This document shows, piece after piece, positions 6,602-44,125 of a DNA stretch of 64,000 bases. How positions within the stretch are numbered: the stretch's first letter is position 1; each line of letters opens with the position of its first letter. This DNA comes from Octopus vulgaris. Its lineage: Eukaryota. Made by a program: the position numbers and the translations under genes. The notes beneath the pieces were generated by a model. It was not told the DNA's origin. It did not search any database and was given only the letters and a program-made list of their open reading frames with translations. Location: the NCBI GenBank assembly GCA_951406725.2, contig OX597834.1:42780001-42844000 (forward strand). Reading direction: 5' to 3'.

Positions 6602-6765
6602 GGCGCAGGTGTGGCTGTGTGGTAAGTAGCTTGCTTACCAACTACATGGTTCCGTGTTCTGTCCCACTGCGTGGCATCTCGGGCAGGTTTCTTCTACTAT
6701 AGTCTCGGGCCGACCAAAGCCTTCTGAGTGGATTTGGTAGACGGAAACTGAAAGAAGCCCTTCGT
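6602..6765 (+). mobile_element. SINE family B, 5' half
   Basis: ggcgcaggtgtggctgtgtggtaagtagcttgcttacc ... gacggaaactgaaagaagccc. Confidence 0.9.
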
Positions 6766-6825: not shown

Positions 6826-6990
6826 TACGACGGGCTTCTTTCAGTTTCCGTCTACCAAATCCACTCACAAGGCTTTGGTCGGTCCGAGGCTACAGCAGAA
6901 GACACTTGCCCAAAGTACCACGCAGTGGGACTGAACCCGGAACCATGTGGTTCGTAAGCAAGCTACTTACCACACAGCCACTCCTACGCC
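6826..6990 (-). mobile_element. SINE family B, 5' half, inverted relative to 6602-6765
   Basis: Reverse complement of the preceding copy, separated only by a CA/TA tract. Confidence 0.9.
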
Positions 6991-17056: not shown

Positions 17057-17282
17057 TACTCTTTACTCTTTTACTCTTTTACTTGTTTCACTCATTTGAC
17101 TGCGGCGATGCTGGAGCACCGCCTTTTAGTCGAGCAAATCGACCCTAGCACTTATTCTTTGCAAGCCTAGTACTTATTCTATCGGTGCCTTTTGCCGAAC
17201 CGCTAGGCTACGGGGACATACACACAACAGCATCGGTTGTCAAGCGATGTTACGGGGACAAGCACAGAAACACAAACATATA

Positions 17283-17363
<81 letters not shown>

Positions 17364-17797
17364 GAAAAAACAAGTCAAAAATAGAAAATGCTAAGATGAT
17401 TTTATAGTGAATCTTTCAGTACCGGTTTCGGTCATTTTGAGACCTTTTCAACTGTAACGATTAAATAATTAAATTTAGAAAAATTAGAAGAAAAGTTTTT
17501 TTAAAAGAATATTTCTGTAGTAGTGTTCAGATATAAGTAGCATTCTGCCTTTCTCTGACTCCCTTGTTTGCTCGAGGTCGTTTCCAAGGAGAATTAGCAC
17601 AACTTTTAACGTAAACGAGCAGGGCAAATGAAAAATAACAAAAATGTATTTTTAGCGCAAGAGTCGACCACATAGTGGACACTCGCTTATATTTGTGTAT
17701 AAATTTTTATTGTATCCCTGGTTTTTATGCGCTAACCCACTTGGTGTTAAATTGATGGTATTATTAAATTAATATCCAATTTTTTCACCCTTATTTT

Positions 17798-17836
<39 letters not shown>

Positions 17837-18184: not shown

Positions 18185-18222
<38 letters not shown>

Positions 18223-18438
18223 TGTGTGTGTGTTTGTCCCCCTAGCATTGCTTGACAACCGATGCTGGTGTGTTTATGTCCCCGTTACTTAGCGGTTCGG
18301 CAAAAGAGACCGATAGAATAAGTACTGGGCTTACAAAAAGAATAAGTCCCGGGGTCGAGTTGCTCGATTAAAGGTGGTGCTCCAGCATGGCCGCAGTCAA
18401 ATGACTGAAACAAGTAAAAGAGTAAAAGAGTAAAAGAG
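18059..18438 (+). mobile_element. SINE family B with small internal deletion
   Basis: Head, (TA)n(TG)n core, and tail ending in (gtaaaaga)n. Confidence 0.9.
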
Positions 18439-21513: not shown

Positions 21514-21925
21514 TTTTCTTCTAGTTTCAGCTCAGAGCTGCGGCCATGCTGATGCACCGCCGTTTTGTGCTACACTGTTATTGCGAAGAACCTCGTCTAA
21601 TATATGGCACTTGGTGAAGAATGGAGTTTGATAGAGCTACTCTCATTTGCACCTCTTGCCGTGAGGTAGGTTCATCTGGGACTCTTGACAGGAAGATGTC
21701 CAGCTTTGATTTAAAAACCGCTACATCTACTTTGTGCAAGTTCCTCAGACTCTTTGGGAGAATATTAAAAAGCTGTGGGCCCTTGAAACCCAGGCTGTTG
21801 CAGAAGCTGGTCCTGAAGCGTGATGGCATTGCTGGGATCTTTGGCACTATGCAGTGTCGTCCCGTTCTAGCATTGGTGTAGCTTACAATGCCAAAATTTG
21901 GCACAATTCCTTCCAGGATCTTCCA

Positions 21926-21930
<5 letters not shown>
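21514..21930 (-). mobile_element. 3' end of a CR1/L2-group LINE (ORF2 C-terminus + short 3' UTR)
   Basis: YVWKILEGIVPN...GRHCIVPKI...SLGFKGPQLFNILPKSLRN...FKSKLDIFLSRVPDEP...SNSILHQ is typical of this ORF2 C-terminus; frame is open to the stop at 21578. Exact clade uncertain. Confidence 0.85.
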
Positions 21931-22013
<83 letters not shown>

Positions 22014-22049
22014 ACCAAAAAATAATAAGCAACAAGAATGGATCGGTAG

Positions 22050-22134
22050 TTTAGTACAATTGTTTCATACTATAACAATTTATTAAAGCTGCAAATATTA
22101 CAGCAAATATAATGTCAAGTAATCTTCAGCTAAA
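22050..22134 (-). ncRNA. Type-I hammerhead ribozyme with long stem-II loop
   Basis: Minus strand: UUUAG-CUGAAGA-uUACU...AGUAu-GAA-ACAAUUGU-A-CUAAA; 5-bp stem I, canonical core, palindromic stem III; about 37-nt tail then (TA)n. Confidence 0.7.
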
Positions 22135-35150: not shown

Positions 35151-37077
35151 ATATAATATCTATGAATGTATGTATTCATCTTTATATAGTTATACATGTG
35201 GATATGAATGTGTGTGTATGTGTGTATCTGTATGAATGAATGTATATCTATACTCACAAACACACTTACCTGATGCGTCTTCGTGTCAAATGACGGTGTC
35301 AAATGACGGTGTCAAATGACGGTCGATCATCCAGTCGATCGATGAAGTGAGAAGTCTGCTTCTTCGATGAATGCACGTTCAAGTGGCTGAGTACTGCGCA
35401 GTTATGTGACGTCTCGTGTAGAATCAGTGTGATACAAAGGACTTCTAAATCTTTTCCCCCTACCGTGTGTTTCACACGCCAAGATGTTAAACAGTGGGGA
35501 CGAACACGGCACGTCTTGATTTTGAAGGGAATTTCTTACCCACCCAGTCATGCGTGCATTTTGACACACGTGTTGACGCGCACGCGCATTGGTACGTGTG
35601 CATGTATTTGATATATGTGTATTATATATGTGTGTGTGTGTGTGTGTGTGATGAATATATGCATTTGCATATATGTATGTATATGTATATATTTATATAT
35701 ATGTACATATTTGTGTGTGCGCGTGTGTATGTGAGTATATATAACCACACATATACACACGCATATATGTCTGTATATCCGTGTATGAATGAGAATTCTT
35801 ACACTTTTATTACGTTTACGTTCCGAGTACAGATGTCCACATTAAAAGCTTCACAATTCGAACATGTCACATTAGTAGCCCCGATTGTGTTTCCATTGTA
35901 TATCGTGACATTTTACCAATCAACTTTAATTTGAAATGTCCCCCAACTAGCAACTTCAAAAGTTCTTCCTTTCGGCTACTCAAAAGAGAAGGACACCCTG
36001 CCAATAACGTGATAAATCTATGAAGAGATTTCATTTTGATAATACTTTAAGCTATAGCCCTAAATCCATTTAAAATTGGAAATATATTCCCAACAGACAC
36101 GCTCATTGCAGTTCAGTTTTGATTATATCTTATCAATACATTTTGAAATTCATTTCTTTTCTAGTTTTCTCTTCTTTCTATTTTCTGTTTTTCTTATACA
36201 ATATAATAAGTGAATTTCGGTGTTCAATTCCCGCTGGAATTGGCTATTGAGAATCTTCGTCATTTTCAGTGAATTTTTTTTTTGATATATATATATATAT
36301 ATACTAATTACAGAAGTCTATTAATCTTGTTGGAAGTCGTGTAGTCGATTATATCGATCTTGCTCTGTTCAACAGGTATTTATTTATTCTCCCTGGAACA
36401 GATGTAAGGCAAAGTTGATCTCGGTGGTATTTGAACTCAGAACGGAAAGACGAAATATCACCTAGCATTGTGACCGACGCGTTAACGACTTTTCTGTTTG
36501 TTTAAAGCGTAAGACATAAACTTGTTTCTAGCGTTCTTCTTGTAATTAAACTATTTCCATAATCAAAATTAACATAACACTCGAATAACTGTCGTGACAA
36601 GGTCAATAAAAGTATTGGCTATTAATTAAATACGGTAGCTTGATGAAAATGCGTTGCGGAATAAGTATCGTCCCTTCATGTTCTGAGTTCAAATCCCACC
36701 GGGTTTTGCTATTCATTCATTTTTGGAACGCAATAATAAACTACATACCAAGACATATGTATAAAGAATTCTCTACTTGTGCATTCCACATTCTAGATAG
36801 AGGAATCAAAACTTCTTGTAATCATGCCACAGAGTCTTATGAGAAAGAACGTTAGACGCTGAGATTCCGGTTTCTCTGCGCTTATGAAAATAACGGGACT
36901 CGTGTCTGGAATAATTTTCCTCATAGATTACGTGTGGCTAAACGACAACAGTTATCCTTACCAGTAATAAAAGTTCCAATTTTACCAACTGTACCTCGCC
37001 CCACCCCACCCAGAAAAAGGTAGATTTGTGTCTATATTGAATAATGAACAGCAAATAATTTCATTGTTAGGCAGTTA

Positions 37078-37748
37078 ACGCAGCGAGTTGGCAGAGTCGT
37101 TAGCGTACCACGCAAAGTGCTTAGCGGTATTTCGTCTGTCTCTACGTTCTGAGTTCAAATTTCGCCGAGGTTGACTTTGCCTTTCATCCTTCCAGGTTCG
37201 ATAAATTATGTACTAGCTGCGTACAGGGGTCGATCTAATCGACTGGCTCCCTCCCACAAAATTTCGGGCCTTGTGCCTAGAGTAGAAAAGAATATTTTCA
37301 TTGTTAGGTAGTTAAGGCGGCGAGTTGGCAGACAACTTAGCGTGCCACGCAAAGTGCATTTCGTCAGTCTCTACGTTCTGAGTTCAAATTTCGCCGAGGT
37401 CGAATTTTCCTTTCATCCTTTCGGGGTCAATAAATTGAGCACCGGTGGAACACTGGGGTCAATGTAATCGAGTAGTACCCCTCCCCAAAATTTCAGGCCA
37501 TGTGCTTTTAGTAGAAAGAGTTATGAGAGGTAGTTCAACCGGCGAACTAGCTGAGTTACCGTGCCGGGCAAAATGATTAGGGGCATTTCGTCCGTCTTTA
37601 TGTTCTGAGTTCAAATTCCACCGTGGTCGATTTTGCTTTTCATCATTTTCGGGTCGATAAAATAATTACCAGTTGAACACTGGGGTCGATGTAATCGACT
37701 TATACTCCATCCGGAATTGCTGGCCTCGTGCAAAATTTGAAACTGTTA
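37078..37748 (+). mobile_element. Three head-to-tail SINE family A monomers, each with its own head
   Basis: Heads at about 37078, 37316 and 37541; the first two are both preceded by tttcattgttagg.agttaa. Confidence 0.85.
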
Positions 37749-38719
37749 TTAAGTGTAGTTTGTGAAGAGCAAAGAAAAGATATGGAAAGTTAATTTGCCC
37801 TCTTTAACGTGTTTCATTTAATCGACGTGCCTAGTTTTGTAATTTGCTTATTTCATAAGCATCAGTATTAGATCAAGGATCAAATAGCCGTAAACTGCTA
37901 ATTTCTATCTCGTCGTAGCGGATTGTATGAGAAGGGGTGCACAACATCAACCGTGACCCTGTAGCAATAGACCCCGTTTATTTTAATCACAACGCATAGA
38001 AGAAAGAAAGAAAAAAAATCAGTATTTGTTATATGTTCATTAGGGGTTCAATACACGACTGACTGCATCATGCAGGGATACCGCCTTCGAGTATTTTAGT
38101 GTAACGGATCGAACTAGTACATTTTTAAAGTCTTGTACTTGTTTTATCAGACTATTTTGTAGAACCGCTCAGTTATGGGAGCGTAAACATACCCACGCTG
38201 ATTTTTGAAACAGTGAAGTGGGAGGACAAACACAGACACAAAGACACACACATACAGACGCCCCCTAACATACACAAACACACTTTACGACAGGCTTCCG
38301 AACAATTCCCTCTACAAAATCTCTCAAGTCACTGATCGACACTGGAGCAAAAGTGAAAAGAAATAGATACCAAACAACCCCCCAAAACACACCCTACTAC
38401 CTTAGTAAAGGACAAGGTGTATGGTACAGCATTGAGTTCGTTGTACGCAGGTTAAAGATGGTTGGAATGTTTTTGATAGGACCTTTTATCCTATTGATTA
38501 GGGAAAACTGCATCCTACGAATCAAAATGAATAACAGCCATGGAAAATTTTCGGATGGTTACTGCTGGAACGCTTTTGATTGTGATGTCTCCTTGACACC
38601 CTCAACACATAGTCCTCACGTACCAACATTTAAATTCACCATGTTGCTAGCCTTTGAGTCAGATTTTCCGATTCATGGTTACCTGTTTCTTTGTCTTCCT
38701 CCATTCAAGGAAGACCTGA

Positions 38720-38750
<31 letters not shown>

Positions 38751-38759
38751 ATAGAAAAT

Positions 38760-39050
38760 AGTGAAAAAACTACAGAAGCCTTGTTTTATAAGGTTAAAGA
38801 ATATATTTAAGTCGTTATGTTTGAAAAATGTTATAAAATTTTGCAAATAGTAACTCTTCTTTGCACTTCATAACGAAGATATAACACGATGTAGATAAAG
38901 ACATTTGAGAAATTTGAAAAGTTAAATCGAAACCGGTAATTTCTCCAAAAAACTATGTTACTATTTGCAAAATTTTATAACATTTTTCAAACATAACGAC
39001 TTAAATATATTCTTTAACCTTATAAAACAAGGCTTCTGTAGTTTTTCACT
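38760..39050. mobile_element. Foldback element: 95-bp inverted arms around a spacer carrying a hammerhead; PLE-like inverted terminal structure
   Basis: 38760-38854 is the reverse complement of 38957-39050 with a single 1-nt indel; (TA)n on the left, tatatat on the right. Confidence 0.85.
38907..38945 (+). ncRNA. Minimal type-I hammerhead ribozyme, U3:A8 core variant
   Basis: GAGAAAU-UUGAAAA-GuuaaauC-GAAA-CCGG-UA-AUUUCUC; perfect 7-bp stem I, palindromic ACCGGU stem III, vestigial stem II. Confidence 0.7.
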
Positions 39051-39105
39051 CTTTACTATTTCCTATATATGCAACCACGTGCTTTCACACACCAACTTTC
39101 TCACC

Positions 39106-39142
<37 letters not shown>

Positions 39143-39308
39143 AGGCGCAGAAGTAGGTGTGTTGTAATTTGCTTTCTTACTAATCAAATGGTTCCTGGTT
39201 CATTCCCACTGCGTGGCACCTTGGCCAAGTGTCTTCTGCGATAACTTCGGGCCTGACCAAAGCTTTGTGAGTAGATCTGGTAGACGAAAACCGAAAGAAG
39301 CCTGTCGC
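39143..39308 (+). mobile_element. SINE family B, 5' half
   Basis: ggcgcagaagtagg...cccactgcgtggcaccttggccaagtgtcttc...ggtagacgaaaaccgaaagaagcc. Confidence 0.8.
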
Positions 39309-39310
39309 AT

Positions 39311-39412: not shown

Positions 39413-39429
39413 GTTCGAAATTTCCCCAA

Positions 39430-39475
39430 GACACCTGAAGAGGGCTGGATGGTATATTAGTCGAAATGTTGTGTT
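39430..39475 (+). ncRNA. Minimal type-I hammerhead ribozyme, slightly decayed
   Basis: GACAC-CUGAAGA-G-GGCUGG(augguaua)UUAGUC-GAAA-UG-UU-GUGUU; differences from an ideal motif are consistent with C-to-T decay. Confidence 0.6.
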
Positions 39476-40681
39476 AACAACAAACAAGATGAGGACAATG
39501 TAAATGTAAATATGTAAATATGTAAATATCGAGATGAGGACAAATAATGTAAATAATGTACATAATTCCTCATCTCTTAAATATAGAACTGAAAATATGT
39601 TGTAGTTTAGTCCCATTGCGCTACACGTCAGACGTCTATTGCTGTAGCTTCGGTCAAAGAATGACTTTTGAGTGAGTTTGGTAGACGGTAACTTGTGGAA
39701 GCGCTTTGTATGCATATACCTGTGTGTCTTTATAGTTGTGCTTGCCTCCCACTTCTACCGTTTGTTAACTGGTGTTGGTTTGCTTATGTCCCTGTAACGC
39801 AGCCTTAGAGAGTCATTAAAAAAAGATAAAGCAAAAAAATATTAATACGAGCTGGGAAGAACTTCATCGCATTCGATCATTTGTCTTCGACTCGTATCGA
39901 CTAATGAAATAATTATTTGCAATAAACAGAAGACCATTTGAGGTGTAATTTTAAAATACCTGCTTCAACTACAAAACGAACCAGCGCTTTCCTGCATTGC
40001 CGTGTGGTTTCTCTGAGAAACTTAGCACTTGCAATATCTTTCAGTCAACAACTTAAAAACCAATAGCAATGTTAAAAATATCATTGAAAAATCATGAAGA
40101 AAAAAAGTAAAACCACTGGAAAATCTCCATCACACAAGCACACTCGCAGATATACATGCATACATGGAGACATATATGCATACGTACCTACAAACATGCA
40201 CAAATACAGGCACAAGCAGTGCTAACTTTCACTTTCGCTTTCCATAACTAATTTACCTGGCACTTAAAATTATCTACCCGGAGCCATTGTTTTCTGCTAG
40301 ACATAACAAGACGGAAATATCACGAAACCTGATCTCTTAGACACACATCAATAGGTAACAATAAGTAATATAGGATCTAAGATTTGGAAATTTCCGTTGG
40401 TGCCTGTACAATGACCACGAGATATCTGGCCTTTCCCACTGTCAAATCTTTATACGTATCTTCCATATGTCTATATTATTTATTGTTAACACACATTGCA
40501 AACTTTTTGTCGCTCTCCTTGTTGGATTCGTTGTTGTAATTCTCATTGTTATTGTTGGTAGTTGTAGCGCTGGTGGTCGGAGTATTAAGTGAATTATGTA
40601 TATCTAGCAATCCATGCATACACAGGTATGGGAAGAACGCATCTTAAACTTTTTCACAAAGCCTCTATAAACTCTCGACGT

Positions 40682-43250: not shown

Positions 43251-44125
43251 GTCGTGTGGTTTAAAATCAGAGTAAGAAATGTCTATCCGAGCAGCGAATT
43301 ATCAATGTCTGACTACAAGAATCTGCCTGGCCAAAATCTTAAAGAACTACTGTAGCCCAACATGTCGTTTGTGTAAACAAGAAAATGAAACCATCGATCA
43401 TATTGTCTCCATGTACAACCTTCTTGCACCCACGGACTATCTCAACAGACATAATATACACAGTATATTCACTGCAAAGACTTGGATCTGCCCCATGATT
43501 TTAATTGGTGAGAATACAACACCTCCGGTGCTTGAAAATGATCACATGCGTGAAAGAATGTCAAAAGTTGGCAAAGGAAGAATATACGAAATGGAGGCAC
43601 GACCAGGTGGTAAAAACTTTGCACAGGAAATTTTGCCAGAAGCGAGGATTTGAAGCTGGAAATACATGGTAAAAATCATCGAGTCAAAGGAAACCTGGAG
43701 TCGGAGAAATGTAGGATTTTGTGGGACTTTCCTATTCAAAGAGACAAGAAGTTAGCAAATAATAAACAGTTATAGATAAGGAAAAGGAAAGTTGGTTACT
43801 GATTGATCCATTGTGCCCATTTTATTCCAGGATCGTAGACAAAGTGGGCGACAAACAAAGAATATACAATCCCTTAAAATTTGAAATAGGAAGAATTTGG
43901 ATTATAGGAACTGAAAAAGTCATGTCTAAAATAATTGAAGCTTTGGGAACAGGAAGCAAAGATATAGAGAAATGGCTGAAGAAGATTTGAATAGAATTCC
44001 TTGTAGAGCTTCAATAAAATGTTTGTCCCTTAGGGACAAAAGCTCGCGGACACCTAAGGTTACAGGTAGTAACCGGCTACCCTTATAAATATGCTAGGAA
44101 TAAGACCAAACCTGAGTTAAACCAA
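43251..44125 (+). mobile_element. R4/Dong-like RLE non-LTR retrotransposon 3' fossil (two fused fragments) beside (AAT)n
   Basis: GLKSE...PTCRLCKQENETIDHIVS...YLNRHN (zinc knuckle); then ECQKLAKEEYTKWRHDQV, ESEKCRILWDFPIQ.DK, IDKEKESWLLIDPLCPF, ALGTGSKDIEKWLKKI (restriction-like endonuclease); AAT repeats on both sides. Confidence 0.88.

Follow-up and report, generated by a model that had tools for sequence, protein, structure and literature searches.

How does a short non-coding sequence come to lie beside its own mirror image, between runs of TA repeats and with a hammerhead ribozyme motif in the gap between the two halves? The locus that raises this question is found in Octopus vulgaris (assembly GCA_951406725.2, contig OX597834.1, positions 42,780,001 to 42,844,000 of the forward strand), in a stretch of 64,000 nucleotides that is called the window here and to which all coordinates refer. 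The window consists of non-coding, microsatellite-rich animal DNA (GC 28-43% per 2 kb) with repeats like those of octopus genomes. Its long open frames are made up chiefly of dinucleotide repeats, and ARAGORN detected no tRNAs. The foldback comprises 355 AT-rich bases (approximately 38751-39105; 27% GC), and its arms are perfect over 90 bp (38765-38854 vs 38957-39046). Carried outward to 38760, the arms reach 95 bp if a single indel within a T/A run is allowed for, and the spacer between them (38855-38956) is 102 nt long, so that the near-perfect foldback reported in an earlier note on this DNA is borne out. The predicted fold of 38751-39066 has an energy of -150.2 kcal/mol (z = -22.1), and none of 100 shuffled sequences folded as well. 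The likeness between the arms extends further, to approximately 38751 and 39066, and the outermost ~14 nt contain three differences (left vs right: a 7-nt gap, a 1-nt change in run length and one substitution). Mirror symmetry stops at the flanks, as the flanking DNA is not mirrored.

The two ends of the element are asymmetric. The left arm (38751-38854, minus strand) is an inverted, 5'-truncated copy that mirrors 38957-39066; it halts at the equivalent of 39066, which corresponds to the short 3' end of its family, bears no tail, and is followed by a (TA)n run (38720-38750) that, by its sequence, is likely the target microsatellite. The remainder (38855-39105, plus strand) is a direct, 5'-truncated copy of the pLTR-like 3' region of the family, and the longest ATG-started plus-strand frame in 38855-39106 encodes 13 aa. 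Its right arm (38957-39066, plus strand) starts 18 nt downstream of the predicted ribozyme cut, and the copy then runs 39 nt beyond 39066 to its own repeat run, a (TA)n(TG)n sequence (39106-39143) that is likely the other half of the target. This one-sided extension of 35-40 nt (39067-39105, plus strand) is A+C-rich (65% A+C over 39067-39106) and is likely the "tail" known from Penelope-like elements (PLEs). The earlier note had drawn a roughly 300-bp element at 38760-39066, each end of which would turn an identical tail towards TA repeats. The foldback itself stands; the right boundary does not, since the short TA stretch at 39064-39070 is internal to an element that goes on to ~39105, and the additional 35-40 nt are present at the right end only.

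To which family these pieces belong can be read from public contigs. Parts of 38420-39105 were contained in 20 of 24 runs, three of which contained at least half of its words. Contigs of the four top runs (X1-X4, representing two organisms with three runs and one run) were aligned to 38855-39106 at 80% likeness, giving 693-1,078 aligned contigs in each of the four, with the 90-95% band the largest every time and all 28 bins of the direct copy covered. These alignments indicate that the foldback belongs to a large, diverged repeat family that is present in both organisms. Depths given below are summed over contigs and are a rough share of letters, not a copy number; the fall in depth towards 38855 is an edge effect and was not counted as evidence of truncation. 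In X4, record 25 carries 32 extra letters upstream of 38855. Family coverage continues past 39066 to ~39105 and there meets (TA)n. Among the 24 listed of 353 rows of loose ends, those entering (TA)n lie at 39070 (two contigs, X4), 39101 (two, X2) and 39103 (five, X4), so the family appears to have a short and a long 3' end, 31-35 nt apart and both joined to (TA)n. The left arm of the foldback ends near the short one (39070), and the right piece near the long one (39101/39103).

Strand switches are found elsewhere in the family as well, at 38874/38971 (X3) and at 38949/38983 (X1). These agree with the earlier expectation that the inversion breakpoint varies between copies, to the extent that one contig each, at 80% likeness and with the direction not given, can speak to it. 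A further joint in X1 (38879/39017, six letters between) is of unstated kind, and a fourth joint skips 37 nt. As with the inverted arm of the foldback, which starts 18 nt downstream, none of these other joints coincides with the ribozyme cut. Such joints bear on a different reading of the locus. MITEs are small and non-coding, with long inverted arms and TA flanks, and the foldback could be a non-autonomous unit of this MITE-like sort, fixed in extent, bounded by long terminal inverted repeats and amplified whole; its perfect 90-bp inverted arms, its GC content of 27%, the TA at both flanks and the lack of a coding frame all suit this description. The arms, however, are internal sequence of the family, the breakpoints appear variable, the ends are asymmetric with joints elsewhere in other contigs, and the haplotype of the arms is rare (0.13-1.4% of depth at 39032). 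BLAST within the window returned no second copy of the foldback family, and no transposase match was found among the window frames scanned. We therefore rejected the MITE as a highly improbable origin. The "mini-PLE" of the earlier note, as a unit amplified in its own right, is likewise not supported, as the locus looks like a one-off stump.

What the layout does resemble is the product of a PLE insertion. In PMC8557442, PLE insertions are described with an inverted, 5'-truncated copy beside the 5' end and a 30-40-bp tail that is often present at one end only, and with microsatellite targets that hide target-site duplications; PMC3846280 reports a case of two inverted pLTRs, only one of which bears a tail (31 bp). 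At the octopus locus an inverted 5'-truncated copy stands head-to-head at the 5' side, both outer ends match TA-joined ends of the family, the tail (39067-39105) is on the right only with the two family ends (39070 and 39101-39103) seen in few contigs, a type I hammerhead (38907-38945) lies in the pLTR, and (TA)n on both sides makes any target-site duplication unreadable, with no empty site seen. The locus is quite probably the result of a single PLE insertion in trans, which placed two head-to-head, 5'-truncated pieces of one hammerhead-bearing family between TA runs. In this respect the insertion with an inverted partial terminal repeat that had been proposed earlier is supported, by layout and hammerhead together. 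Neither reverse transcriptase nor GIY-YIG endonuclease was matched in Pfam by any of 106 stop-free window frames (at least 75 aa; frames of low complexity, or overlapping part of the element, set aside); none of the 106 reached the Pfam cut-off, and the one sub-threshold match was unrelated. No such frame being linked to the family, its membership in the PLEs is drawn from the RNA motif and the layout only, and by these the locus is probably the stump of an endonuclease-bearing PLE. For Octopus vulgaris, PMC13282606 counts 30 Penelope families with recent activity.

The proposed insertion would proceed as follows. A Penelope-like reverse transcriptase/GIY-YIG endonuclease, acting in trans, would nick the (TA)n run on both strands, and cDNA would be primed twice on the element RNA, from opposite strands. 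Priming at the long 3' end would give the right piece with its tail (251 nt), and priming at the short 3' end the left piece without one (~104 nt); both would be truncated early and their 5' ends then joined, which would make the mirror symmetry a by-product of integration rather than the terminal repeats of a transposase. According to PMC11167929, the tail lies between two start sites of the reverse transcriptase, in an AC-rich region, and AT-rich DNA is cut on both strands. Self-priming on an antisense template has been proposed in PMC3846280, and the locus does not distinguish this from the two-priming model. Compared with EN+ PLEs (Penelope/Poseidon, Neptune and Naiad; PMC3846280, PMC8557442), the head-to-head 5'-truncated pieces, the 35-40 nt extension at one end and the likely microsatellite target that hides any target-site duplication are alike. 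Unlike full EN+ PLE insertions, the locus holds the terminal region only, with no ORF and no second direct pLTR. Naiads are without a hammerhead, whereas the foldback element has one.

Does the near-perfection of the arms mean that the insertion is young, as the earlier note held? Youth is not established by the letters of this copy. The majority letter of all four runs differs from the window at no fewer than nine of 252 sites (those listed being 38895, 38926, 38927, 38965, 38966, 38989, 39032, 39062 and 39071), and 38967 differs from about half of the depth. Five of these ten sites fall in the inner right arm, and the left arm mirrors all five. At 39032 the letter found in the window accounts for 0.13-1.4% of depth, at 38989 for 0.65-2.4%, and the rare bases at 38965, 38989 and 39032 overall for 0.1-2.4% of summed contig depth. 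Had each arm drifted independently by 3-5.6%, the probability of finding zero differences in 90 bp would be 4e-3 to 2e-5. A single insertion from a typical master thus does not explain the rare bases common to both arms, and the insertion model requires a further step to account for the perfect inner arms. The outer ends, as noted, are unlike each other, and opposite 39062, a site at which the right arm bears a rare base, the left arm retains the majority letter of the family.

Three kinds of explanation were weighed for the identity of the arms. The slightly favoured one, with about an even chance of being correct, is that the insertion dates further back and that arm-to-arm repair later made its inner arms identical, up to the 7-nt gap. 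It is somewhat less probable that both arms were recently copied from a source copy that was already diverged, with errors near the ends; local duplication and polishing share what remains. As to how such repair might work, we tentatively suggest, as a doubtful possibility, that it copies post-insertion mutations from arm to arm across the 90-bp stem and that the 7-nt gap fences off the outer ends.

The rare bases common to both arms (38965, 38989, 39032) would also be expected if the locus began as a plain 5'-truncated copy and only afterwards gained its left arm, through a local template switch during replication. The switch would have read 38957-39066 in reverse and gone back via TA microhomology, from 39064-39070 to the left TA run. 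The TA at 39064-39070 would serve as the return point, and a contig of X3 is of some relevance here. Record 18 of X3 (38881-38997, depth 49) has one other letter over 117 nt and reaches 41 nt into the arm, passing by 11 nt the point, 30 nt in, at which a 31-mer path ought to be broken by an identical left arm; it is a hint against a fixed, identical left arm and at a haplotype without one, though contigs are simplified and the record proves nothing. Against this order of events, the left arm has the majority base opposite 39062 and is without the 7 nt, and so was not newly copied from the right arm; other copies contain strand switches too, and the layout is the standard product of PLEs. Such a switch is therefore considered unlikely. 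Two smaller observations were made in the same region. Three adjacent bases at 38965-38967, unlike those of many family copies, create a perfect 8-bp palindrome (38962-38969), as a template-switch mutation would. At 38852-38854, the same three bases are perhaps present in the family just upstream of 38855 (one X2 loose end), which would make a possible, weak 3-nt microhomology at the junction of the foldback.

Collapsed polishing would be expected to place the same rare bases in both arms, and the foldback, or just the perfect identity of its arms, might be an artefact of assembly or polishing. The junction (38854/38855) sat at the edge of the reference in the contig alignment and is without confirmation in independent reads, no aligned contig spans the whole stretch, and inverted PLE structures are known to trouble assemblies (PMC8557442). 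The unmirrored flanks, the differing outer arm ends and the match of each end to a real terminus of the family speak against an artefact, as does the occurrence of the spacer-plus-arm haplotype in X3 with one other letter over 117 nt, bearing in mind that X3 may be the source of the assembly. We regard an artefact as very unlikely, and the single PLE insertion in trans is the reading followed below.

The ribozyme motif in the spacer (38907-38945, plus strand) is a minimal type I hammerhead, with a stem I of seven Watson-Crick pairs and a core in which U3/A8 replaces C3/G8. GAAA is present, H17 is A38938, helix II is a single G10.1-C11.1 pair closing a 6-nt loop, and helix III is a 6-nt palindrome (38932-38937). 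The motif contains all core elements of the minimal PLE hammerhead (C3-G8 or U3-A8, G10.1-C11.1, GAAA and UH), and its palindromic helix III would permit a dimer, for which a fold is predicted. It lacks a helix II of several pairs and the bulge that would follow position 9, there being 1 bp and no extra base between 9 and 10.1. It is the sole motif in the window with a stem I of at least 7 bp, and chance is a poor explanation for it: dinucleotide shuffling of the spacer never produced it in 20,000 trials, nor did it turn up when the whole window was shuffled 20 times. The perfect 7-bp stem I and the cut site that had been predicted earlier (38938/38939) both hold, the latter by the position of H17. 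Rfam gave 0 matches in the window at the gathering threshold, and a local scan returned no hammerhead family among 40 matches to E=10; the weak local matches were dismissed as driven by microsatellites or hairpins.

Is the motif kept in other copies? None of the 40 listed of 68 variant rows falls within 38907-38921, 38928-38933 or 38936-38937, which leaves the 5' strand of stem I, the first core box, G10.1, C11.1, GAAA and U16.1 invariant in those rows. The variants listed within the hammerhead concern loop II, H17 (A to U; 13-51% of depth), a helix III CpG (0.5-7% of depth) and 38945, where the outer pair of stem I changes from G-C to G-U (19-68% of depth). Variation that spares the core and stem I is the pattern of a conserved motif, and the hammerhead of the family looks conserved though very reduced (U3-A8, helix II of 1-2 bp), in line with the earlier supposition that it is kept among copies. 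At 38926 and 38927 the window is unlike most of the family, with one helix II pair here vs two formed by the majority letters. Loose ends at 38948-38949 in X1-X4 outline a second subfamily with an A-rich loop II, a 1-bp helix II and H17 = U, which retains GAAA, the palindrome and stem I.

Whether the motif could cleave, and in what form, was approached by folding. For one molecule alone, adopting the hammerhead fold takes +3.2 kcal/mol, with a computed probability of 3e-8; within the full element stem I forms (0.84-0.98), and the core is otherwise paired (A15.1-U16.1 0.0; U3-A17 0.85). For two molecules, a double-hammerhead pairing with swapped stem I and a 6-bp helix III is predicted at -19.3 kcal/mol vs -13.4 kcal/mol for two monomers; in this fold U3-A17 is also paired and the helix II pair is absent, and a strictly active dimer (U3 and A17 free, helix II closed) scores -13.9 kcal/mol. 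Lunse et al. reportedly described small PLE hammerheads that cleave as dimers. PMC4209133 includes U3-A8 cores and small palindromic helices III among PLE hammerheads, with single minimal motifs that do not cleave and dimers that cleave at a low level. The earlier note had the transcript self-cleaving in the loop; given the palindromic helix III, which needs a second molecule, the fold probability of 3e-8 and the literature on inactive single PLE motifs, self-cleavage of one transcript in this way is unlikely. The hammerhead would instead be carried along with the pLTR, and any cutting by it would take place in dimers formed via its palindromic helix III. For the anole PLE, PMC11167929 reports a hammerhead that cuts only with protein and is dispensable for insertion in vitro, its cut site being without RNA-seq ends.

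Among known systems, the closest in RNA structure are the minimal type I hammerheads of metazoan PLEs (Cervera and de la Pena 2014, PMC4209133), which share the U3-A8 variant, G10.1-C11.1, the small palindromic helix III and the occurrence as a single dispersed motif. The octopus motif differs from those described there in its helix II (1-2 bp vs 6-8 bp), its stem I (7 bp vs 2-5 bp) and the missing base between 9 and 10.1; it would be expected to work like them, in a more reduced form. Supplementary hammerhead alignments may already contain equally reduced motifs. Animal non-LTR retrozymes (PMC7229834; bioRxiv 10.64898/2026.07.22.740005) are alike in being short, non-coding, low in GC, PLE-related and equipped with a type I hammerhead. 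A retrozyme was nevertheless rejected, as there is no head-to-tail tandem, one motif at the locus and no second copy in the window; with one hammerhead only, the locus has no means of releasing an RNA of unit length or a circle. Of four papers listed for octopus and hammerhead ribozymes, none concerns such a family by its title; the family may already be catalogued in Repbase, Dfam or supplements.

The window contains other repeats of related kinds. A minimal hammerhead of another family (17451-17420, minus strand) has the same U3/A8 core and palindromic helix III, with a stem I of 3 bp and, by eye, a helix II of ~4 bp after a bulged G; 56 nt beyond the cut its 3' end meets a TA run, and TA runs flank the block 17364-17799 on both sides. 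A further motif at 39435-39470 (plus strand) has a C3/G8 core, an extra G, a 6-bp helix II and a minimal helix III, and sits in a pLTR-like sequence (~39420-39592) 300 bp from the foldback, a 30-nt part of which occurs at four other sites of the window. SINE-like pairs in opposite orientation are found around microsatellites (6602-6764 / 6828-6990, 89%; 17062-17282 / 18213-18434, 87%), with a related copy at ~39150-39310; other nearby inverted pairs were considered as members of the foldback family and rejected, being oppositely oriented copies of a different repeat. At 36215-37744 lie five tRNA-like, SINE-like repeat heads (families D6, D10 and D11), three of them ~228 bp apart, and ARAGORN calls none. 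Two frames, at 43276-43653 (plus strand) and 21578-22069 (minus strand), resemble by eye what we take to be decayed C-terminal pieces of non-LTR retrotransposons, and had no match in Pfam.

The locus shows an already published insertion shape in compact form and is mostly of little wider consequence. Head-to-head PLE stumps of this kind are easily mis-annotated as MITEs, and the rare bases common to both arms are a caution against taking perfect arms as a sign of youth. The reduced, yet conserved-looking hammerhead lends itself to studies of cleavage that is assisted by proteins or by dimer formation. If the tentative proposal of arm-to-arm repair is true, head-to-head PLE stumps would be self-maintaining perfect hairpins in which arm identity is no clock for the age of insertion, and thousands of them could remain lasting sources of double-stranded RNA.
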